In this document: in pieces, positions 4,920 to 54,203 of the stretch
How positions within the stretch are numbered: the stretch's first letter is position 1
Layout: each line of letters starts with the position of its first letter
DNA from: a virus
Length of the DNA: 64,000 nucleotides
IMG/VR virus record: IMGVR_UViG_3300020182_000023
Location: 1 to 64,000 of that record
Reading direction: 5' to 3' (one strand)
The notes under the pieces: generated by a model
Seen by the model: the letters and a program-made list of their open reading frames with translations, nothing else
Told to the model about the DNA's origin: nothing
The model's database searches: none
Program-made: the position numbers and the translations under genes

Positions 4920-5524
4920 TTCTCTTTGGTTATTTTATAGTTAGTTATTATTGAATCACCACAGCTAGTTAACACTGTAATTTCGTATTGTCTTTTACCC
5001 CAACGTGGAGTCCAATTCCAATTGAATAATCTCTTTCTTTCATCTGTAGTCACTATCGCAAGTTCTGTCTTGTCTTTTACGCTGAAATCTCCTATGGTAT
5101 CCATATTAAACCACATAAAATCCACTTCTAAGCCGCAAGTGTTATAAGATGCTCGGTTAAGCATTAAGCCCTCAAAATCGCTTGTAATTATCTTTACGGT
5201 ATCTCTGCTGTATTTCTCTGTTCTTATGTATTGAATTTCCGTTATTGTCTTAGGATTCTTTTTTAAAGAGTCTAATACCCATTGGAGTTCTTTCTTTTCT
5301 TTTAATATTTCTCTAAAGCCCTTCTTGCTTATTGTAGCCTCTTGGGTTGAACGGGAAATATCTAAAGCCATTGACTGCAACTCTCCTTGCGACTTCTGAT
5401 TCTTATTTAGTAAGTCCGTATTCTTATCGCAAGTAAGTAATAATAGCGCAAATAATAGCCCGATTACTATAAAATGCCAATACTTAACTAATATCTTGGC
5501 TACTATGTCAAGTGCAATACTCAC
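4916..5524 (-). CDS. Spanin-like membrane/lipoprotein
   Basis: Hydrophobic N-terminus ending LLLTC, followed by coiled coil and beta-rich domain. Confidence 0.45.
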   Translation of the reverse strand: MSIALDIVAKILVKYWHFIVIGLLFALLLLTCDKNTDLLNKNQKSQGELQSMALDISRSTQEATISKKGFREILKEKKELQWVLDSLKKNPKTITEIQYIRTEKYSRDTVKIITSDFEGLMLNRASYNTCGLEVDFMWFNMDTIGDFSVKDKTELAIVTTDERKRLFNWNWTPRWGKRQYEITVLTSCGDSIITNYKITKEK

Positions 5525-5527
5525 TAC

Positions 5528-5998
5528 TTATTTTTGGTTTCCGTAGTTAGTAACTGTTACTGTACAAGCACCCGTTGTAGAACCTTCTACATATATAGGC
5601 TTTACGAAGTTATATCCTAAGCTTGCTTGTCTGTCTGCTAGAAATCTACTATTATCTGATGTGGTGGAGGTAATTGTAACTCCATCTACTTCTGTATCTA
5701 CCCCTTGGTCAGCCGCAATTCCTATTGCTATAATCTTACAATCTTCTTTGTCGATTACTTTTAATGCTGTTGTAGATAGGTCAGATGTAAATGCAGAATT
5801 AAGTAATCCGCTAACACCATCTCTTTCAACCCATTCCACTCGTCTTGATTCCTTTTGCGTTGAGTCTGTTATATAGTCACCCACCTTTACTTGGTCGGCT
5901 GTGCTTGTTATAAATGAAGCCCCGAATGTATCAACAGTTCCAGTTGCAGCAGCATCGGCTGGAATAAATGTGTCGGTTGTTACGTTAAATGTTGCCAT
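5528..5998 (-). CDS. Putative virion structural protein
   Basis: Thr/Asp/Gly-rich beta protein behind its own late promoter. Confidence 0.45.
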   Translation of the reverse strand: MATFNVTTDTFIPADAAATGTVDTFGASFITSTADQVKVGDYITDSTQKESRRVEWVERDGVSGLLNSAFTSDLSTTALKVIDKEDCKIIAIGIAADQGVDTEVDGVTITSTTSDNSRFLADRQASLGYNFVKPIYVEGSTTGACTVTVTNYGNQK

Positions 5999-6009
5999 AT
6001 TGGTTATTT

Positions 6010-6029
6010 TTTGTTAAATACAAAGATAC
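6010..6029 (-). promoter_or_regulatory. Late promoter GTATCTTTGTATTTAACAAA (Bacteroidota TAnnTTTG -7 element)
   Basis: 20-bp exact copy at 22870..22889; 16-bp copy at 15038..15053. Confidence 0.75.
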
Positions 6030-6043
6030 TAAATTTAAAATTA

Positions 6044-9000
6044 TCACTCCGCTAATTTATCTAGCCCATCAACTAAAGCTCTCTTGGCTTTTATTACATC
6101 TCTATTCTTATCGGCAATTGATAAATATTTCTCTATTAATTCAGACTTTCTCTCTATGTTAGATTCCTTGTAACTAGATTTACTCATTAATTTATCCATC
6201 ATTTTAGCCCTAGACTTGCCTAACACTGCTGCGTATTCATTATATAAAGTGTTATGCTCTTTATCTTTTAATACCTTGTATTTCTTCCCATTATAGGATA
6301 TTATTCTGCTGGGTAAATTAGGCACTACTTTAGTGTTAAGGGTTTGTCTATATACATTATATATCTCTAAAGACTTTTCATCGTGCGGTACGGTTTGAGA
6401 TTTAGATACGTCAAACAATTGATGAAATAATGGGTTCTTACCATCAGGAGTTCTCTTTATTTTCTCGCCCCACATATCTACTCTCACAGGAAAGTCTTTA
6501 TATATATCAATTCCAACTATCTTTTTAGGAGGGTATATTTTACTAACAATAAGTGATTCTAGCATAGAATGAGTATTATCAGAGCGCATATCGTGTAAAT
6601 ACGTTTCCGTTGCTCTGTCTATGGCGGAAAATGTGTTTGGCGCACCAATTACTGATACAGCTCCAAGCGTTTGTTTTACCCATCGCTTGGTTTCATAATC
6701 ACCTCCAGTTATAGCGTCTAGTAGTGATGCTGTACCCGCTAAAAAAGACTGCTCTGTTGCATATTTTGTGGTTGCTGGTACTGCGCCTAGATTTATATAT
6801 TTTCCACCTTCCTTACTTACCTTATCCCAAAAGCCTAAATCATCTTTTATGTTTACATATTTTGACTTTTCAGCTTTATAGGTATCTTCGCTTTGAGAAG
6901 ACCTTATAAGGATAATAGCGCCTAATATTCCTAGCTTTTTTAAGTTTATAACTTCATCGCCCTCTTGAAGTTCCGTTCCTTTACCGTTTAGTAATCTTTT
7001 TAGACCAGATAAATTTAAATGGTCTGGCGGAAAGCCAACTGCCCTTTTTATATTCTGCTCATCTTCTGGGTCATCCCCAAAATCAAAAGGAGAACTTATC
7101 AAGCCCTCTGCTATTAACATTCCAGCTACTTGACTCATTATTATTCCAGTTGTAAAAATTCCAATATTTTTATTACCCTGCTTTACATCACCCTTAGAGT
7201 ATGCGTGTACAGCTTTACCCAGAGCTACTGGCGGCAGTACAAAGTCTATCGTTTGACTTATTATATTTGAAGGAGTTTTAACGTATGGTATCGTTGTTCT
7301 GAATAAGAACGATAAAGCGCCACCTATTCTTGGTACTGATTTAGCTTTCTTCTCTATAAAGTTAGTAATATCTATTGCTGTTTTTGATAATAGACCCTCC
7401 TCCATAAATACAGCCTCAGCAGCACTTTCATTAACATCCTCTAATGTTTTAGCGTCTGGAAGCATTACAAAGTTTCTTAACTGCTGACCGCTCAATCCTT
7501 TCCTTTTACCCTGCGTGTAAAGTTGCTTGTATTGAGTGAAATAATAGAACGGCTTATCGCCTAATGCTAATAACCTAAACATTACTTCTGGGGCAGCGCC
7601 AAAGAATGATTCATATATTTTTTTCAATCTATCATTCCTATCTATTCCAGACTCAGATAAAGCCCTATCTCTTAATTCAGAAGACTTCTCTAAGTCGCCA
7701 TCCATTAGCGCTCTCTTAGACTCCTTCATTAATTCAATACCTTTCTTACTTAATGTCTTTGGAAGTAGCCCAGATTCTATACCAAAAGCATCTCCTAATT
7801 TAGTGTCTGATATTGCTTGAGTAAATGCTGTTAATGGTCTGAACGACTTCTTTACCTCTCCCTTAGCGTAAGAACTATCACCTTTTAACAAGATTCCCCA
7901 AGCCTCTTTAAGTCCTTTTGCAGCTCCAATCCATCCAGCCACATATTTCATAGGGTCTAGCGAACCCGTTCTTTTACCAGTGAATATGGATTGAACTAAA
8001 TCAGACATATTAGATACTATATCAACTGGAATCATTAGTCCTTGCTGCGCTATATTTGCTACTATGTTTGTTGCTTGCGACATAGGCGTAAGTAAATTAC
8101 CTTGTAGTGTCATTTTAGTCATATCACTCCAACTCATAGGTATGAATCCTGATGACTTATCGTAAAATTTCTTGGTGTCTTTTTCTGCTTGTTTCTTTAA
8201 CTCATTTAAAGTTTTTATATCTTCTTTTGTTGCATTACCCCCTTTATCTTTTATAAAGGCATCTAGCTTATTATTCGATTTAAGCATTGATTCGGCTAAC
8301 TTAGTTAAGTCTGCTTTCTGTTTTTTAGTGAAAGCCTTACCTTCTTTTTCGGCAAACTTTTCTAAGGTCATCATTATTCCTGCTGGTGTACTGTTTTTAA
8401 GTGTTGCAAATTGAGCGATTAACTGACCCATTCTAGTACCCTCTTTAGCAAATCTCTCTACTATATCATCTATTGGCTTACCTTCCGCTAACCTTCTGTT
8501 TATAACTTCAACAGCAGCTAATACAGCGTTATTATTATTACCATCTGAAACTATATTAATACCCGTTTGATTCATTGATTCTATCAACTCATCTTCAGAT
8601 AGATTATCTAAATTTTCTTGTATCTCAGCCCAAGTTTGAGGGTCGTAATAGTTTTCTGGATTTTGCTTTATGTTTTCCCTTAGCTTACTTAGTGATTTAA
8701 CTCTCTTATCCCCTAAAACGCTTTCAGCGAAACCTCGTAGTTTTCCTTTTTTACCATCAGATTTTTGGGAATCCTTATTCTGTTCTTTAGATTGAGTGCC
8801 TTCTTCATCTATATTTTTATTCGATTCTAGCGAAACCTTGTCGTATATATTTTTAAGTTCAGGCTCTATGTCCTTTCCTAATACTTTTATCATTTCTTTA
8901 GAGAACTTCTTAAAGTCTCCAACCGCATCCTCTAGCACCATTCCTGCGTACTCATAGAACTCTGGGTCTGCTAATAATGTTGGTATCCTACTAGCGTCAT

Positions 9001-12000
9001 TAAGCGTATTAAAGAATTTATTTCTAAGTTCTTTTTTTCTAGCTTTTCTTAACTCCGCTTCCTTAACCTCTACTTTAGGCTTACTAGCTTTCTCTTTTAC
9101 TGGCGTTTTTTTGGTTTCTACTTTAGGTGGTAATGCTTTGGATGCGTCTTGTTTGGTAGCACCTTTTAAAATAGGCTCTAATGCAGAAGCTAACATCTCA
9201 TTAGCCTTCTCTTTACTATATCCGTCTTTTATAAATTGACTTACATAGCCACTGAATAATTTATCTAAAGGGATACCTCTTTTATTAGCCTCGTTAATAG
9301 CTACTTTAAGTAGGATGCCGTCCCCTAAATCTTTAGTTGGGTCTCCGTTTAATAAAGCTTTTGTTGCTGCTTTAGTTAATTCAGAGTCATCCATATCAAC
9401 TATATCCAAAGCATTTATAGCTGCCCTTATTTCTGATTCTTCGGCAAACTTAAATTCTTTTTTCAGTAATTCTTCTAATGATTTTAAAGGATTATTAGAG
9501 TTCATAATAGACTCCCATTCTCTTTTCTCTAACTCCTTTTCTACTTCATTAAATTCTTTTTTGCGTTCAGGTGAGCTTAAATCAGATTCTAGTTCAGTCC
9601 ATCTATCCTCTAATTCTTTAGTGTCTTTTTGCTGTACTTCTTTACCGCCTTGTTTAGATTTTAACTCAGCTATTTTAGCATCGTATTTTTCATTAATTCT
9701 ATTAATATCATCTTTCCCTACAAGATTACCATTAACAGTAGGAACTTCGCCAGTCTCATTTGATTTAGCAATGGCTAATTCTATTGGCTCTAACTCTGCT
9801 CTACGCAGTTCCTCTATATCTTCTTCTTGCTGTACTTCTTCACTATCTCGTTTACCCTCTTGCATATCTGCTGTGGGTTGCTCAGTTGTTTCTTTTCCAT
9901 TTGTTTCAGTATTTGCCCTTCCTTCGTTATACGCTATAGGATTACTAGGCACTACAATATAACCCTCTTTCCCAATTTGAACTTCGCCTAAATTTAAAGT
10001 TTCACCTTTTATTGATGATTCTAGCATAACATCAAATGCCTTAACGCTATCATTTAAAACCTTCTTTTTAACGGGGTCTTCTTCTCTTTCTGCTGCTCTT
10101 GCTACTTGGTCACGCTTAAACTTTATAGCATTATATTCTTCACTATTATCTGTGTTGTAATTATCTATCTCTTGCCCTAAAAATTCAAGGGTACTTTCGT
10201 CTATATTTCCGTTTTCGTATAGCTGAGATATTTCTAATTTCGCTAAGTCTTTTCCTTTCTTATTTATAATGCGCCCTATTTGCTGCATAGCAATATCTGG
10301 ATTTGACGCTATTGTATTTTGTTCTTTATTTATAGCACCACCCATACCTAATAAGGCTACTGGAAGCATATTAAGACCTGTTTCGACAAAGCTCTCCGTA
10401 GATGCGTAATCAATAAAACCTTCGTAATCACCCGTTTTCTCAATAGATTTCTCCATTAAACCTTGTGGGTATTCTTGCATTAATTCACTTGCATATTCAA
10501 CCGCACCACCCGTTGAGATTCTTAATACGGGGTTAGATATTTTCTTAAATGCACCAACAAACGGAAGCCCCTCAAACATATATAAAGGTGCTAAGGCAAT
10601 TTGACCGTCTATTGTTTCGGAAGCAGCGTTCTTAGCTTGTTCCTTTGAGCCAGTTCGCTCTAAGGCAGACTTATAAGACCTGCCAGCCATATCAACGGTT
10701 TCAGTAGCTAATCCAGACAATCCAGTTGCTATAATTCTAGTAGCCATACTAGCGTTTCTAGTTGCCACACCCGTTGCTATACCAGTCGCAATAGCAGGAA
10801 GCATACTACCCGTTAAATTACCACTACTCTCTACCACAGAATAAAGTGATAGGTCTTTAAATGACTGTATAGAACTAACGTTAGGCTGAAAATATTGCTC
10901 CATCTTCTCACCCCATTCCCCATCTCCACCAAATGAAGTAGACCAACCTTGCATAAGACTTCCGAATGAAGACAATGTTGATGTTACATATCTTTCTTTT
11001 AATGGGTCTAACCGAGCTATACTTCCTAATGAAATTAAGCCCTCTTTGTTTTTATTGGATTCGTCATAAAGTTCTTTTACAGACTTCTTTGTTACCGACT
11101 CTATTTTACCCTGAATGTCTTTACTTACTTTGTATTTTTCAGATAATTCATTAGAGAACTTAGTCGCTAATTCATTATATGCTTTGTTTTTTTCGGCAGC
11201 TAATCTGTTAATCTTAGCGCCATATTCATTCTGTAATTTTGACTGCTCAGATACAATTTCGTCTACGCTTGATACATATTGATTGTATAAGTTTTCTTGT
11301 TTTTTAGTGTATTCTTTTTGGTCGAACGGAATATTGTTAGCAACTAATTGCTCGTATTCAGCTTGAAGGGATAGAGCTGACTCCTTATAGCTATTAGATA
11401 ATCCGTCTACCTCAAACTGACCTTTCTTTGCGAAATCATTTAACACCTTAGTGTATTCAGTATTAACTGAATCTATTTCAGATTTATTTTTAGCAGCAAG
11501 CCCAACTAATGTTTTTCCATATTTGGTTTTAAACTCAGATTGATATTCAGCGCCTATCTCACCTTCGAGAGATTTACCATATTCTTTTTGATAGTTTTCC
11601 TCTACCTTTTTATCTAGTTTTTTGGTAGGTATATCAATAGAGAACTGCATTTCATCCTCTAATGATTTTTTGAATTTAGCCTTTAATCCAGCATCTTTAT
11701 CATCGAAATACTTATCAGCCTCTTCATTTATTTTGTCTAGGTTAGGAACTCTAAGACCGTAATAATTCTCACTTAAATATTCTTCCCTTACTTTTCCGTC
11801 AGTATCATATATCCTAGACTTAGCACTAGCCAATTGAGGATTTATAATTTTATTTACCTTTTCCTCTAACTTCTTTGCCGTTGCTTCTACTTCACTAGTA
11901 GCGGCATCCTTTTGGTCGTTTAGGCTAGTCATCGGGTCGTAGTTAGCCATCATATTAGGGTCATCGCCATAAGCCCTTGACTTAGACGCTTGCTCTAACA

Positions 12001-36779: not shown

Positions 36780-36998
36780 ATGGAATTTTCACTATTTTTA
36801 AACAACGGAGAACAAATAAATATAAACACAGAAGATTATACAGACCCTACTAGAACGGTTATGGAATACCTTATATCAATGCTAGAATATTATGAAACAG
36901 AATTATCCTTCTGTGATGAAGAAAATGAATTACTGTATCAGCAAGTGGAATATTGTAAACTACTTACTGATTTGTTGAAGCCAGAGATAAAGAATTAA
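36780..36998 (+). CDS. Acidic hypothetical protein
   Basis: ATG 4 nt after TATATTTG; stop codon is the TAA of the following TAAC. Confidence 0.6.
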   Translation: MEFSLFLNNGEQININTEDYTDPTRTVMEYLISMLEYYETELSFCDEENELLYQQVEYCKLLTDLLKPEIKN

Positions 36999-37041
36999 CA
37001 CCAAGCTAAGAAGCGTTTTAATGCTTTCTTAGCGGCTGTTA
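36996..37041 (+). repeat. attC-like palindrome, short type
   Basis: TAAC-ACC-AA-GCTAAG-AAGCGTT-TT-AATGCTT-T-CTTAGC-GGCT-GTTA. Confidence 0.75.
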
Positions 37042-37114
37042 TGCAACGTTTTAATGTTGCAATTTTTAACCCTTATTAACATTAACCAATAGATAATATT
37101 AATACATTTGAATT

Positions 37115-38720: not shown

Positions 38721-38951
38721 ATGAAAACAAAATTGATTAGAAACAGTACGCTCCAAGACTTAATGGATGCTGCGGAGTATTCTTCTTACTCAGAAACACT
38801 AGAAGGTGTTAAACGGGCTAAAATAGGCTTAGATATATACGAGAAAGTAAAGGGTGGCTGGAAGCAAATCAGCGATTCGGGTATTATACCTAAGAAGTGT
38901 AACGTTATATCTCTTGATGCTAATGGCGCAAGCAGAATGAAGCGGAGGTAA
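38721..38951 (+). CDS. Hypothetical protein
   Basis: ORF ending in the TAAC of an attC-like site. Confidence 0.55.
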   Translation: MKTKLIRNSTLQDLMDAAEYSSYSETLEGVKRAKIGLDIYEKVKGGWKQISDSGIIPKKCNVISLDANGASRMKRR

Positions 38952-39043
38952 CGGTTTGTGTATGAGTAGTGTGGCTTTGCTCTTATTTTCAACTTACAGA
39001 TAAACTTATTTAGCCACATTACTTATACACTTTTTTATAGGTA
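38949..39043 (+). repeat. attC-like palindrome, long type (right GTT mutated to TTT)
   Basis: TAAC; arms GTGTATGAGTAGTGTGGCT / AGCCACATTACTTATACAC (17 Watson-Crick + 2 G:T). Confidence 0.7.
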
Positions 39044-39060
39044 TGTAAAATTTACGGAAT

Positions 39061-39207
39061 ATGAATAAAGAAAATAATTATTGGAAAGGAATAATGGTTG
39101 GATTTGCAGTAAGCACAATTGTTTGGTGTACTTTATGGGCATTTGTTATTGGAAAAATAGATAAGGTTCACAAACAAGAACTTGATTATATAATAGAAAA
39201 ACACTAA
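39061..39207 (+). CDS. 48-aa single-TM cassette protein
   Basis: Manual translation MNKENNYWKGIMVGFAVSTIVWCTLWAFVIG..; fills the space between two attC-like sites. Confidence 0.6.
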   Translation: MNKENNYWKGIMVGFAVSTIVWCTLWAFVIGKIDKVHKQELDYIIEKH

Positions 39208-39236
39208 ACAAAGTAGGTAGTAAATTTTATTACCTA

Positions 39237-39283
39237 TAACACCCGTCTAAGAAACGCTTTAATGTTTCTTTTGGCGGCTGTTA
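39237..39283 (+). repeat. attC-like palindrome, short type
   Basis: TAAC-ACCCGTCTAAGAAAC..GTTTCTTTTGGCGGCT-GTTA; homologous to 36996. Confidence 0.7.
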
Positions 39284-39350
39284 GATAAAGTTTAACAACC
39301 ATTTTACCCGACAGGGGAAATTGGTTAAGGAACATTAATAGATTTGAATT

Positions 39351-46482: not shown

Positions 46483-46605
46483 AAACATTTAACAGACTAA
46501 GCATATTAACATTTATTATTTTGGTAGGTGGATTTATTGCAATAAGTTTGTGTTTGTTATAACGTTGAGTGTAGTGCGGATTATTAACAAATAAATTTAA
46601 TTGAA

Positions 46606-46882
46606 ATGGCTGAAATTAATTATAGTAAAGAGAATTGTTGGAGAATAAAATACATTCCCAATAGATTGCACTAAAGAAAAAAATAGACATGGTGATTGGC
46701 GAATTGTAGTACCCAAAATGGCAATGAGTTATGACGTTTTTATTGATATAGAAACATCTATTACACACATGGAAAGTTATGGTATTAGATACAATTACAT
46801 AGAGGGTGTCGCTAGTATGAATGTAACGGATAAAGGACTAAAAGAATTACAAGAAATGACTGACGTTATACGCATAGTTTAG
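46606..46882 (+). pseudogene. Frameshifted cassette ORF
   Basis: MAEINYSKENCWRI.. continues in another frame as ..FPIDCTKEKNRHGDWRIVV..VIRIV*; could be a sequencing error. Confidence 0.5.
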
Positions 46883-46891
46883 CATTACACA

Positions 46892-46981
46892 AAACGGGTA
46901 GGTATATGATTAGTGTGCGATTGCACTAACCTTTGAATTAAAACAAATATTAACTAAGCACATTAACTATATACATTGTTA
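46892..46981 (+). repeat. attC-like palindrome, long type
   Basis: AAAC; arms GTATATGATTAGTGTGC / GCACATTAACTATATAC; ATT-GTTA. Confidence 0.75.
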
Positions 46982-47004
46982 GGGTGCGTTTAAATTAAAT
47001 TATT

Positions 47005-47208
47005 ATGACTTACGAAGACTTTTTATTCTCACAATTATTTATGAACCACGTTGAGAATAACGAAACACAATATCAAGAACTTGAATATGACTTGATATTC
47101 CCCGAAGTATTAAAGCACCAAAATCTATTCTTAAAATCTAATTACAATTTAGACGTTTGTAGCGAATACGATTGCATAGTAAACTACCTTCTTAATGAAG
47201 TGAAGTAA
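47005..47208 (+). CDS. Acidic cassette protein
   Basis: ORF bounded by GTTAGGGT and ACCCTAAC. Confidence 0.7.
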   Translation: MTYEDFLFSQLFMNHVENNETQYQELEYDLIFPEVLKHQNLFLKSNYNLDVCSEYDCIVNYLLNEVK

Positions 47209-47215
47209 TGAACCC

Positions 47216-47303
47216 TAACGTTTAGTATAAGATTAGTGCGCTAAACTATAAACTTTGAATTAAGCACTAACATAACCAAGCGCATTAATTTTATACATTG
47301 TTA
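47216..47303 (+). repeat. attC-like palindrome, long type
   Basis: TAAC; arms GTATAAGATTAGTGCGCT / AGCGCATTAATTTTATAC; ATT-GTTA; homologous to 46892. Confidence 0.8.
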
Positions 47304-47324
47304 TGCGCTTTTAATTAAATTATT

Positions 47325-47510
47325 ATGGACTACAAATTAATTGACAACATTGAAGTAGATGGAATAGACACTAAAGACTATCCAGATTTTTGTGACGCAT
47401 TTATAGCAAGTGCGAAATATAATGGAAAACCAATGACTGACGAGCAATTAGATGAATTAAATGAGGATGGCGGATTTGTTTATAAATGTGTGGAAAATCA
47501 TTTGTTCTAA
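47325..47510 (+). CDS. Acidic cassette protein
   Basis: GID..DYPDFCDAFI..A..G..MTDEQLD family; bounded by GTTATGCGC and GCGCATAAC. Confidence 0.75.
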   Translation: MDYKLIDNIEVDGIDTKDYPDFCDAFIASAKYNGKPMTDEQLDELNEDGGFVYKCVENHLF

Positions 47511-47517
47511 TTGCGCA

Positions 47518-47604
47518 TAACACCAAGCTAAGAAACGTAAAGCGCAGCACAATGTTTAATCTTAGCACAATACTATATTGCTTTATGGTGTATAGGTTGT
47601 GTTA
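47518..47604 (+). repeat. attC-like palindrome, hybrid
   Basis: First 27 nt identical to the 54107 element; ends GTGTTA. Confidence 0.65.
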
Positions 47605-47720
47605 GCAAATCGTTTAATTATGAATTTACAAGCAACAGATATATTATTAGCAGTATTTAAAGCAATAGCAATTACATTTTACATTTGCTCAATGGTTTTA
47701 TTTTTAATATACTTAGCATT

Positions 47721-48036: not shown

Positions 48037-48136
48037 TATATTTGCAACCTAAGAGCGTGAGACCTCAACTTAAAACATTTAGATAATTCCTTGCCGAGAA
48101 CCCTTCGGTCTCACGCCTTCTTGGTGGGGGATTATC
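48037..48136 (+). promoter_or_regulatory. Promoter + kissing-loop 5' leader (copy 2)
   Basis: TATATTTG; GAG-CGTGAGAC-CTC hairpin; loop TCTCACG inside a 19-bp stem with 5 G:U. Confidence 0.7.
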
Positions 48137-48154
48137 GACTTTATTATAATTATT

Positions 48155-48640
48155 ATGGCTGATAGAACACACGGAATGTCTAGCACTAGGGAATACAAGG
48201 TATGGAAGACTATAAAAGATAGGTGCTATGGAATTAATAGCGATTGCTATGACAGATACGGAGGCAGAGGTATAGTTATGCAGTATAATTGGATTAACAA
48301 CTACATAGAATACTATAATTATGCAAGTAAGATAGATGGATTCTCAGACCCTAATAAATCAATAGATAGAATAGATTCTAATGGAAACTACGAAGAGGGT
48401 AATATTAAATTCTCTACCCCTAGTCAACAATGCGCTAATAGAAGGCTATTCAAGAACTCTAAATCAGGCTACACTGGCGTAGTTAAAAAAGGAAAGAAAT
48501 ACGAGGCTACCATAAGCGTTAACGGTAAAAGGATATATATAGGAAGGCATAAAGACCCTAAAGTATTGGCTATAATGAGAGACGAATATATAATCAAAAA
48601 CAATCTTACCGAGTACCCACTTCAAATTTTAAATAGATGA
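48155..48640 (+). CDS. HNH-AP2 homing endonuclease
   Basis: W..IKDRC..YGGRGI, SIDRID.NGNYE.GN, SGY.GV..YIG AP2 domain. Confidence 0.85.
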   Translation: MADRTHGMSSTREYKVWKTIKDRCYGINSDCYDRYGGRGIVMQYNWINNYIEYYNYASKIDGFSDPNKSIDRIDSNGNYEEGNIKFSTPSQQCANRRLFKNSKSGYTGVVKKGKKYEATISVNGKRIYIGRHKDPKVLAIMRDEYIIKNNLTEYPLQILNR

Positions 48641-54106: not shown

Positions 54107-54160
54107 TAACACCAAGCTAAGAAACGTAAAGCGAAGCGTATGTTTCCTTAGCGACTGTTA
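54107..54160 (+). repeat. attC-like palindrome, short type
   Basis: TAAC-ACCAA-GCTAAG-AAAC..GCGAAGC..GTTT-C-CTTAGC-GACT-GTTA. Confidence 0.75.
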
Positions 54161-54203
54161 ACGCACGTTTTAATGTGCGGAATATTAAAAACTTAAAAAT
54201 ACA

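Follow-up and report, generated by a model that had tools for sequence, protein, structure and literature searches.

Integrons in the strict sense carry an integron integrase, i.e. a tyrosine recombinase with the IntI-specific additional domain, and attC (59-be) sites, imperfect palindromes of 57-141 nt with the layout R''(..AAC)-spacer-L''...L'-spacer-R'(GTT..), in which the bases outside the core are complementary across the cassette but not across the site. Clusters of attC sites lacking an integrase (CALINs) are also known, including those in virulent phages (Qi et al. 2023, PMC9892861), although phage CALINs are reported as rare curiosities. Integrons are thought to be nearly absent from Bacteroidota, as IntegronFinder 2.0 reports one complete integron, in Salinibacter (PMC9024848), and none was found in a Tenacibaculum genome (PMC10013915). 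Two further systems are pertinent here: the rAID-1 (recombinase-associated acquired interbacterial defence) arrays of gut Bacteroidales with immunity-gene cargo, in which co-directional genes follow a XerD-like recombinase and the intergenic repeats are 'reminiscent of integrons' (Ross et al. 2019; bioRxiv 10.1101/471110), and the PeSLs (promoter-early stem-loops) of T4-type phages, which consist of a sigma70 promoter plus a terminator, flank small ORFans in hyperplastic early regions and are exchanged by homologous recombination (Arbiol et al. 2010, PMC2839356; Comeau et al. 2014, PMC4122927).

To investigate a putative cassette array in a marine phage, we analysed a 64,000-nt stretch (the window; positions 1 to 64,000 of the 78.7-kb IMG/VR record IMGVR_UViG_3300020182_000023). 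An earlier note made from the sequence alone had proposed an attC-like cassette array served by a recombinase encoded elsewhere, and this core reading is supported by the analyses below. The same site family was found in arrays next to a dedicated recombinase in Flavobacteriaceae, the likely host family, suggesting that phage and host share an integron-like gene-swapping system that standard integron tools appear to miss, although recombination itself is inferred.

Structured sites bracket small ORFs in the phage window

Direct reading of the sequence confirmed that small ORFs are separated by palindromic sites with AAC and GTT cores (Table 1). Of the three palindromes that the earlier note had described as roughly 90 bp, two are copies of a ~105-nt structured site (type 1) and the third (47518-47606) is a shorter relative (type 2), while the site at 46560 is a junction without a hairpin. 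A covariance model (R1) scored the first two highly but 47512-47617 at only 14 bits, and by this model the window has three type-1 sites plus type-2 sites. The third palindrome shares TAAC-ACCAAG-CTAAGAAACG...CTTAG-CGRCT-GTTA with the sites at 36996, 39237 and 54107 and with P12002L_attC1 of Polaribacter phage P12002L. The latter was called an attC site by HattCI (PMC9892861), so the statement that such arrays are not described in Bacteroidota phages is only partly true. Infernal's attC model, as used by Qi et al., did not call P12002L_attC1, and it was the one site that failed to recombine with IntI1.

Table 1. Coordinates of the sites, flanks and cassette ORFs in the window (D, right flank of the preceding cassette; F, left flank of the following cassette)
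Position	Strand	Feature	Description
36996..37044	+	Type-2 site	TAAC overlaps the stop codon of ORF 36780..36998; followed by a GTTTTAAT-loop hairpin with a T run, then a TACATTTG promoter box
38943..39048	+	Type-1 site	GTT mutated to TTT (39034); F TTTATAGGTA at 39034-39043; R1 58 bits, E 6e-10, with compensatory arm changes
39061..39207		Single-gene cassette
39230..39285	+	D and type-2 site	D TTACCTATAAC at 39230-39240; ends at GTT 39280-39282
46560..46577	+	Collapsed junction	TAAC (46560-46563) abuts GTT (46564-46566); F GTTGAGTGTAGTGC at 46564-46577
46608..46882	+	Cassette ORF-A	Frameshifted in the window (a 22-aa ORF plus ORF 46718..46882); a metagenome variant with AG inserted after 46649 reads through as about 92 aa
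46887..46993	+	Type-1 site	D GCATTACACAAAAC at 46882-46895; left arm 46901-46918; right arm 46958-46974; GTT 46978-46980; F GTTAGGGTGC at 46978-46987; R1 83 bits, E 3e-15
47005..47208	+	Cassette ORF-B	67 aa, no known family
47210..47314	+	Type-1 site	D GAACCCTAAC at 47210-47219; 18-bp helix; GTT 47300-47302; F GTTATGCGC at 47300-47308; R1 110 bits, E 5e-21
47325..47510	+	Cassette ORF-C	61 aa, phrog_28889, function unknown
47513..47606	+	D and type-2 site	D GCGCATAAC at 47513-47521; short family, here extended; ends at GTTAGC, 47601-47606
54107..54163	+	Type-2 site	GCGAAGC loop

Each small ORF is bracketed by 8-14 nt that are complementary across the gene. Around ORF-B, GTTAGGGT(GC) is the exact reverse complement of (GA)ACCCTAAC; around ORF-C, GTTATGCGC matches GCGCATAAC; and around ORF-A, GTTGAGTGTAGTGC matches GCATTACACAAAAC at 11 of 14 positions, one of the mismatches being a G:T. 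A fourth pair, TTTATAGGTA and TTACCTATAAC, was found around ORF 39061..39207, outside the region described by the note. This is more than chance: over distinct phage copies, the exact complement anchored at GTT/AAC averaged 8.04 nt against 5.61 +/- 0.14 for permuted pairings, and 30 of 52 pairs reached 8 nt or more across the gene, against 0 of 42 across the palindrome itself. Nevertheless, in phages the flanks fall into a few types tied to the site type rather than one per gene, e.g. GTTGTGTGCC/GGCACACAAC brackets more than ten unrelated ORFs and goes with one arm type, and the flanks also pair with the site's own right arm (93% paired), so part of the signature is type-level conservation.

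The site family shows a strand bias and occurs in many phages

Single-sequence DNA folds were weak and not significant (z -1.0, -1.25 and -0.37), and the structure therefore rests on covariation in 41 distinct full copies aligned from IMG/VR. RNAalifold found an 18-bp helix plus AAC:GTT, with 7 covarying pairs. A site comprises AAC, a 5-7 nt spacer, a left arm, a variable loop, a right arm, a 3-nt spacer and then GTT, matching the 1L-2L...2R-1R layout of integron attC sites. Type-2 sites are 50-70 nt and type-1 sites 105-145 nt, the latter having 10-12-nt paired spacers, longer than in canonical attC, and R boxes extended to 10-14 bp. The family occurs 1-17 times per genome in many IMG/VR phages, always on one strand; the site at 47210-47314 gave the only blastn hit of a 7-kb query to a cultured phage, Gundel_1. 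Non-Watson-Crick cells in the helix were 92 G:T against 5 A:C, and those in the flank pairs 21 G:T against 0 A:C, indicating a strong strand bias.

These features could alternatively suggest an RNA-level element, i.e. an attenuator/terminator switch or a processing stem enclosing each ORF in the polycistronic early mRNA, with the flank pairing stabilising or processing each message. In phages the foldable strand is always the mRNA-sense strand and G:U is tolerated; mutually exclusive helices (designated S4:S6, S4:S8, S8:F and F:D) each covary, with 92.7% paired for S2:S5, 87.7% for S4:S6 and 93.4% for right arm:flank; the right arm:flank hairpin is followed by a T run; and the Gundel_1 copy lies just after a promoter box. 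However, no Rfam family matched at gathering or E<=10, helices of invariant sequence are unusual for RNA switches, and the host arrays described below speak against this reading, which we regard as very unlikely. As far as they were considered, no supporting feature was found for CRISPR-repeat mimicry, IS200/RAYT-type hairpins or invertible segments, there being no transposase and every module lying in one orientation.

The same sites form arrays downstream of a tyrosine recombinase in Flavobacteriaceae

The same site family forms arrays in Flavobacteriaceae chromosomes downstream of a homologous 375-420-aa Xer/IntI-like tyrosine recombinase, which is co-directional with the host cassettes. 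The arrays lie 0.3-8 kb downstream of it in seven genomes (G004, G008, G006, G038, G019, G058 and G016) and 25-35 kb downstream in three others (G099, G116 and G129), with the same strand relation in all; in the host array L212 about 1 kb lies between the recombinase stop codon and the first site. Genes of XerC/D size are encoded separately; the enzyme beside the arrays is a third, dedicated Xer-like paralogue, and the sites are 60-145-nt hairpins. In a Hwangdonia array, four near-identical sites carry different, perfectly matched cassette-specific ends, namely GTTGTACAAT/ATTGTACAAC, GTTGTAGCAA/TTGCTACAAC and GTTGTAATTA/TAATTACAAC. In the host arrays the foldable strand is antisense to large, certain genes, as for the attC bottom strand, so that a transcript there would carry A:C mismatches; the RNA-level reading explains neither the recombinase adjacency nor the breakpoints at AAC/GTT. 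The opposite orientation of sites relative to genes in phages and hosts is unexplained.

The host recombinase scored 196 bits on TIGR02249, below the NCBIfam integron-integrase cut-off of 265, and matched VchIntIA (2a3v) at 9e-33. It aligned to VchIntIA in two stretches, with about 26 residues in place of the 69-residue IntI-specific segment (IntI4 residues 179-247), so the system is integron-like but not an integron. The host arrays L212, L213 and L114 share the architecture of rAID-1, i.e. a 5' XerD-like recombinase, co-directional downstream genes, GC lower than the flanks (0.31 against 0.33-0.39) and repetitive intergenic sequence; no site structure, cassette-end signature or phage-borne arrays were reported for rAID-1 in the text that we read. 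The phage window itself has no recombinase.

Arrays were found in at least 31% of the sampled Flavobacteriaceae species and the recombinase family in 74% of them. Co-occurrence across 121 genomes was only weakly informative, with the recombinase in 32 of 38 site-positive against 57 of 83 site-negative genomes; site detection was limited to 32 candidates per genome, and even G004 scored 0 in that mode. Among phages, contigs L058 and L074 encode a 267-268-aa homologue of the recombinase, 36-38% identical, while no PF00589 hit was found in the 78.7-kb record, in Gundel_1 or in three other phage genomes (G001, rated 100% complete, G002 and G003).

Homology between phages ends at AAC or GTT

Comparison with related phage contigs revealed that the homology of L082, L007, L090 and L063 to the window ends at 47220 or 47521-47522, one base after AAC, whereas L072 matches 47216-47304 at 97.8% and diverges after GTTAT. 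In one metagenome (run X7), both the window form (depth 108) and a form lacking the GTT(46564)...AAC(47219) block (depth 66) were present, and other contigs diverge right after 47521. Truncated and hybrid sites show that other recombination also acts, as the L063 and X7 form has a 48-nt internal deletion, and L007 (from 46962) and L032 have breakpoints inside the site.

The latter breakpoints, together with the absence of a recombinase in the five phage genomes searched and the invariant blocks of 19 nt or more that could serve as homology, would fit PeSL-like boundary elements, i.e. conserved regulatory or structural modules between which cassettes are shuffled by relaxed homologous recombination, the resemblance to host arrays then reflecting only shared ancestry of the repeat. 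As in PeSLs, repeated intergenic modules flank small ORFs and mark insertion, deletion and replacement boundaries, and mini-circles have a precedent in T4-type phages (PMC2839356). However, homologous exchange explains neither the complementarity across the gene at non-conserved positions nor the strand-specific G:T bias, and it leaves the recombinase adjacency in hosts unexplained; moreover, four homology blocks end within one base of AAC, where conserved sequence continues only if the next site is of the same type. Also, no Bacteroidota TAnnTTTG with a -33 TTG at proper spacing was found within the aligned element, such boxes lying outside it, as in Gundel_1 (TACATTTG just upstream). This alternative is thus considered unlikely, though not negligible.

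The mutated core at 39034, the collapsed site at 46560, the frameshifted ORF-A, the truncated sites in relatives and the lack of a recombinase in the genome could also mean that the sites are inert scars kept only by linkage, left from captured pieces of host arrays or from a recombinase since lost. This appears improbable, since compensatory changes keep the helices across dozens of diverged phages, copy number varies from 1 to 17 with strict co-orientation, a cassette block is polymorphic within one sample, and the opposite gene orientation of phage and host cassettes indicates that they are not simple copies of host arrays.

A possible trans-acting cassette exchange between phage and host

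Collectively, we favour, with some reservation, that window 46560-47620, with the further sites at about 36996, 38943, 39237 and 54107, is a recombinase-less array of attC-like, structure-specific recombination sites, each bounding one small protein-coding cassette. In the inferred mechanism, a Xer/IntI-like tyrosine recombinase supplied by the Flavobacteriaceae host or by a co-infecting relative would exchange strands at or next to the AAC/GTT core, and a cassette would leave as a circle in which its own right flank (D-AAC) and left flank (GTT-F) pair to extend the site stem, which explains why the two flanks of one gene are complementary while those of one palindrome are not. That the recombinase acts on these sites, and on the phage copies in particular, remains an inference, as does the exact cleavage point.

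More tentatively, the host enzyme could work in trans on phage DNA, so that phages encoding no recombinase could gain, lose and reorder early-gene cassettes during infection and possibly trade DNA with host arrays, the mirror orientation of the phage cassettes keeping the two gene pools functionally distinct; this would be an integron-like gene-capture network running without a canonical IntI and invisible to IntegronFinder. If the recombinase acts on these sites, this would provide a mechanism by which lytic marine phages renew their hypervariable early genes, extend integron-like gene capture to a recombinase without the IntI domain, and link the Bacteroidales rAID-1 arrays to phage genome plasticity.

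Cassette ORFs are without annotated function

The earlier note had inferred acidic host-takeover or anti-defence cargo, but this was not supported, as the ORFs gave no Pfam hit and only one PHROG of unknown function; the host cassette ORFs in L212 had no hits either, and the Hwangdonia cassettes each have two convergent candidate ORFs. An 87-aa ORF sits inside a site loop in L035, which does not fit the cassette reading. ORF-B is under purifying selection, with 7/1/25 differences against L082 by codon position, and ORF-C was found 85-95% identical in at least four different neighbourhoods (L090, L063, L122 and the window).

Organization of the cassette region

The region 46560-47620 consists of small ORFs alternating with hairpin elements, and the coordinates of these and of the other features are compiled in the table below. 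The three flank pairs that the earlier note had claimed to be complementary across a gene were found exactly as described, with the third matching at 11 of 14 positions, and a fourth cassette outside this region, around ORF 39061..39207, behaves in the same way, so the observation is confirmed. ORF-A is split by a frameshift in the window, whereas the abundant variant in metagenome run X7 (depth 108) has AG inserted after 46649, which joins 46608..46882 into one ORF of about 92 aa; this is caused by either a pseudogene here or an assembly error. Folding of each spacer alone was unimpressive (z −0.4 to −1.3), so the single sequences do not prove a structure.

Coordinates of the features in the window, related phage contigs and bacterial genomes
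Sequence	Position	Strand	Feature
Window	46560-46563		TAAC ending a small membrane ORF, followed directly by GTT
Window	46564 against 46882		Flank pair GTTGAGTGTAGTGC and GCATTACACAAAAC
Window	46608..46676 plus 46718..46882		ORF-A, frameshifted
Window	46887-46993		~105-nt hairpin element
Window	46978 against ending at 47219		Flank pair GTTAGGGT(GC) and (GA)ACCCTAAC
Window	47005..47208		ORF-B
Window	47210-47314		Second copy of the element
Window	47300 against 47513		Flank pair GTTATGCGC and GCGCATAAC
Window	47325..47510		ORF-C
Window	47513-47606		Different, shorter-family hairpin
Window	39034-39043 against 39230-39240		Flank pair of the fourth cassette
Window	36996, 39237 and 54107		Recurrences of the shorter subfamily
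Window	37044-37066 and 54160-54180		ORF-less hairpins with the loop motif GTTTTAAT
Window	48037-48135		Structured 5′ leader before an HNH endonuclease gene (48155..48640, phrog_374)
L001	6900-7020		Structured 5′ leader before the Gundel_1 antirepressor gene
L035 (phage contig)	2569-2900	+	87-aa ORF inside the terminal loop of a type-1 site (the long type, 105-145 nt)
L035	2886-3066		Next unit, an 18-bp ORF-less flank hairpin
L074 (phage contig)	7223-7361 (about rc 6790-6830)	−	'Empty cassette' between two full sites
L058 (phage contig) and L074	6257-6469 and rc 10664-10835		Region preceding the phage-encoded recombinase gene
L212 (Hwangdonia array)	5213-8300		Cassettes of ~490 nt
G018 and G051 (bacterial genomes)	C7:93016-98769 and C29:77534-82870		Second arrangement of site and recombinase
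L214 (Polaribacter phage P12002L)	29997-30061		Identical to the P12002L_attC1 primer sequence
L214	38868-38941, 38024-38095, 39504-39563, 32212-32286 (−)		Further short family members

The element is a large, undescribed family

A 7-kb blastn query against cultured phages yielded only one hit, namely the 90 nt of the second element, in Tenacibaculum phage Gundel_1, where the copy lies in an unannotated spacer after a terminator and a TACATTTG promoter box and has its own matched flanks, GTTGTACGC and GCGTACAAC, around Gundel1_61. Both structured 5′ leaders listed in the table lie directly after perfect TATATTTG promoter boxes, but they are unrelated to the attC-like sites. By searching IMG/VR with a 19-nt degenerate pattern derived from the right arm, 86 loci were found, and 41 distinct full copies could be aligned. 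RNAalifold predicted an 18-bp helix between the arms closed by AAC:GTT, in which seven pairs show compensatory changes and three G:U pairs are conserved, while no Rfam family was matched. All four arms of a site, e.g. at window 47278-47308, fit one consensus (GGCRCAYWAAC, or its complement starting GTT).

A covariance model (R1) found three copies in the window, with 110, 83 and 58 bits, whereas the third palindrome of the earlier note scored only 14 bits and belongs to a shorter subfamily, TAAC-ACCAAG-CTAAGAAACG-loop-...CTTAG-CGRCT-GTTA, which recurs elsewhere in the window. Other phage genomes carry 1 to 17 copies, all on one strand.

The flank signature is general

Over the distinct phage copies, the exact complement anchored at GTT (left of a gene) and AAC (right of it) averaged 8.04 nt, compared with 5.61 ± 0.14 for permuted pairings. 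Among 52 pairs, 30 reached 8 nt or more, typically 10-14 nt and often covering the stop codon, while the two flanks of one palindrome never reached 8 nt (0 of 42, mean 4.1). Mismatches were one-sided, with 21 G:T and 0 A:C in the flank stems and 92 G:T and 5 A:C in the arm helix, indicating that one particular strand folds.

In phages this strand is the mRNA-sense strand, and several mutually exclusive helices all covary, i.e. S2:S5, the left arm with an internal segment, and the right arm with the downstream flank, the last hairpin being followed by a T run. In addition, the flank sequences in phages come in a few types that go with the arm type, and one pair brackets more than ten unrelated ORFs. 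Flank hairpins also exist with no ORF at all in L074 and L035, such as the empty cassette of L074, which comprises GTTGTGGTG, 19 nt and then CACCACAAC, and whose loop motif recurs in P12002L_attC1 as well as in the window; in L035, moreover, an ORF sits inside the loop of the element itself, with the left arm upstream of the gene and the right arm plus GTT downstream. All this suggested at first an RNA switch or processing element, with PeSL-like shuffling (PMC2839356).

The same sites form arrays in Flavobacteriaceae chromosomes

By using the same pattern followed by model R1, the family was found in Flavobacteriaceae assemblies, including Winogradskyella, Formosa, Hwangdonia, Lacinutrix, Mesoflavibacter, Hyunsoonleella, Tenacibaculum, Salegentibacter and others, where the sites stand in arrays. 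In Formosa (G004) the array spans 1,648-1,684 kb and a tyrosine recombinase gene lies 1.4 kb beyond it; in Hwangdonia (G008) six sites about 600 bp apart end 1.1 kb from a homologous gene; and in Winogradskyella (G006) a 41%-identical homologue lies 2.5 kb from an array. In a sample of 121 species of the family, 38 had a site even under restricted scoring, and 89 had the recombinase. Further genomes show the same pairing, with the recombinase upstream of, and on the strand opposite to, the modelled strand of the sites, within 0.3-8 kb in G038, G019, G058 and G016 and within 25-35 kb in G099, G116 and G129. In many genomes, array-type recombinase genes very often lie within 0.1-2 kb of a contig end, consistent with assemblies breaking in the repeated sites, so array sizes in draft genomes are underestimated. 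A second arrangement was observed in bacteria (G018 and G051), with a shorter recombinase on the same strand as the site and the site 4-5 kb on its 5′ side; phage contigs L058 and L074 have the same layout, so these may be prophages.

The genes of the host arrays are large, certain and co-directional with the recombinase, and are antisense to the foldable strand of the sites, which speaks against an RNA role for the fold; this role is now regarded as the least likely of the readings considered. Sites 2-5 of the Hwangdonia array are nearly identical, yet each cassette has its own ends that are perfectly complementary across the cassette, i.e. GTTGTACAAT/ATTGTACAAC, GTTGTAGCAA/TTGCTACAAC and GTTGTAATTA/TAATTACAAC. 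This is the cleanest evidence obtained, and the classical signature of cassettes that were circles closed at a folded site. Each Hwangdonia cassette carries two convergent ORFs (about 80 aa on + and 90-110 aa on −), each starting about 5-25 nt inside a cassette end, and none has a Pfam hit.

The array-associated recombinase is Xer/IntI-like

The Hwangdonia protein (376 aa) matched the NCBIfam models of integron integrase (TIGR02249, 196 bits) and XerA/integron-integrase (197.6 bits), both below their cut-offs. Against solved structures it is closest to archaeal XerA (2e-36), then Vibrio IntI4 (9e-33), and it has about 26 residues where IntI4 has its 69-residue specific segment; thus it is Xer/IntI-like but not a canonical IntI. 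Separate XerC/D-sized genes exist elsewhere in the genomes with these arrays. Two phage contigs that carry the sites, L058 and L074, encode a 267-268-aa homologue with PF00589 plus the SAM_4 N-domain, and in both the gene is preceded by a right-arm remnant, GTT, a long ORF-less flank hairpin, AAC and a TAYTATATATAAA box, which may be an attI-like or regulatory region. In contrast, the window's genome, Gundel_1 and three other site-bearing phage genomes (two with 15-17 sites) encode no tyrosine recombinase.

Gain and loss at the core

Homology of the related sequences L082 and L007 (ORF-B) ends at 47220, and that of L090 and L063 (ORF-C) at 47521-47522, both one base after AAC, while L072 is 97.8% identical over 47216-47304 and then carries a different cassette with its own matched flanks after GTTAT. 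ORF-C occurs at 85-95% identity in four different neighbourhoods, one of them a Lacinutrix MAG contig with a site and a recombinase. ORF-B and ORF-C are real genes, as differences by codon position are 7/1/25 and 8/1/12, respectively. The stretch was found in runs from at least 14 studies, mostly marine metagenomes. In run X7, contigs of the window form (depth 108) coexist with a form that skips 46566 to 47274 (depth 66), namely that it lacks the block from GTT 46564 to AAC 47219 and has an extra 48-nt deletion inside the next site, which is the L063 arrangement; other contigs diverge right after 47521. The internal deletion and a few breakpoints inside sites show that ordinary recombination also acts. 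PeSL-like homologous shuffling remains a rival explanation, although an unlikely one, and it is improbable that the sites are merely inert relics.

Comparison with integrons, phage CALINs and rAID-1

The site layout appears to match the 59-be/attC description of Stokes et al. 1997 (1L RYYYAAC, 2L, 2R, 1R GTTRRRY). Taken together, an integron-like reading, in which the array would work like an integron with the enzyme supplied in trans, is the best supported, with moderate confidence, although on the integrase criterion the array does not qualify as a canonical integron. IntegronFinder 2.0 reports essentially no integrons in Bacteroidetes, and we found no paper that links phage arrays to such host arrays or describes the site family. 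Ross et al. 2019 (10.1101/471110) described rAID-1 in Bacteroidales, with a 5′ XerD-like recombinase, co-directional low-GC genes and integron-like intergenic repeats, and the Flavobacteriaceae arrays conform to these architectural criteria (GC 0.31 against 0.33-0.39).

CALINs in virulent phages, including Polaribacter phage P12002L, were reported by Qi et al. 2023 (PMC9892861), and the primer sequence of their P12002L_attC1 is identical to a stretch of L214 that our model hits; in their assay this site was called by HattCI only and failed with IntI1. Beyond the two attC sites reported by Qi et al., further short copies lie between the methylase genes of that phage, beside its DNA methylase and modification genes.
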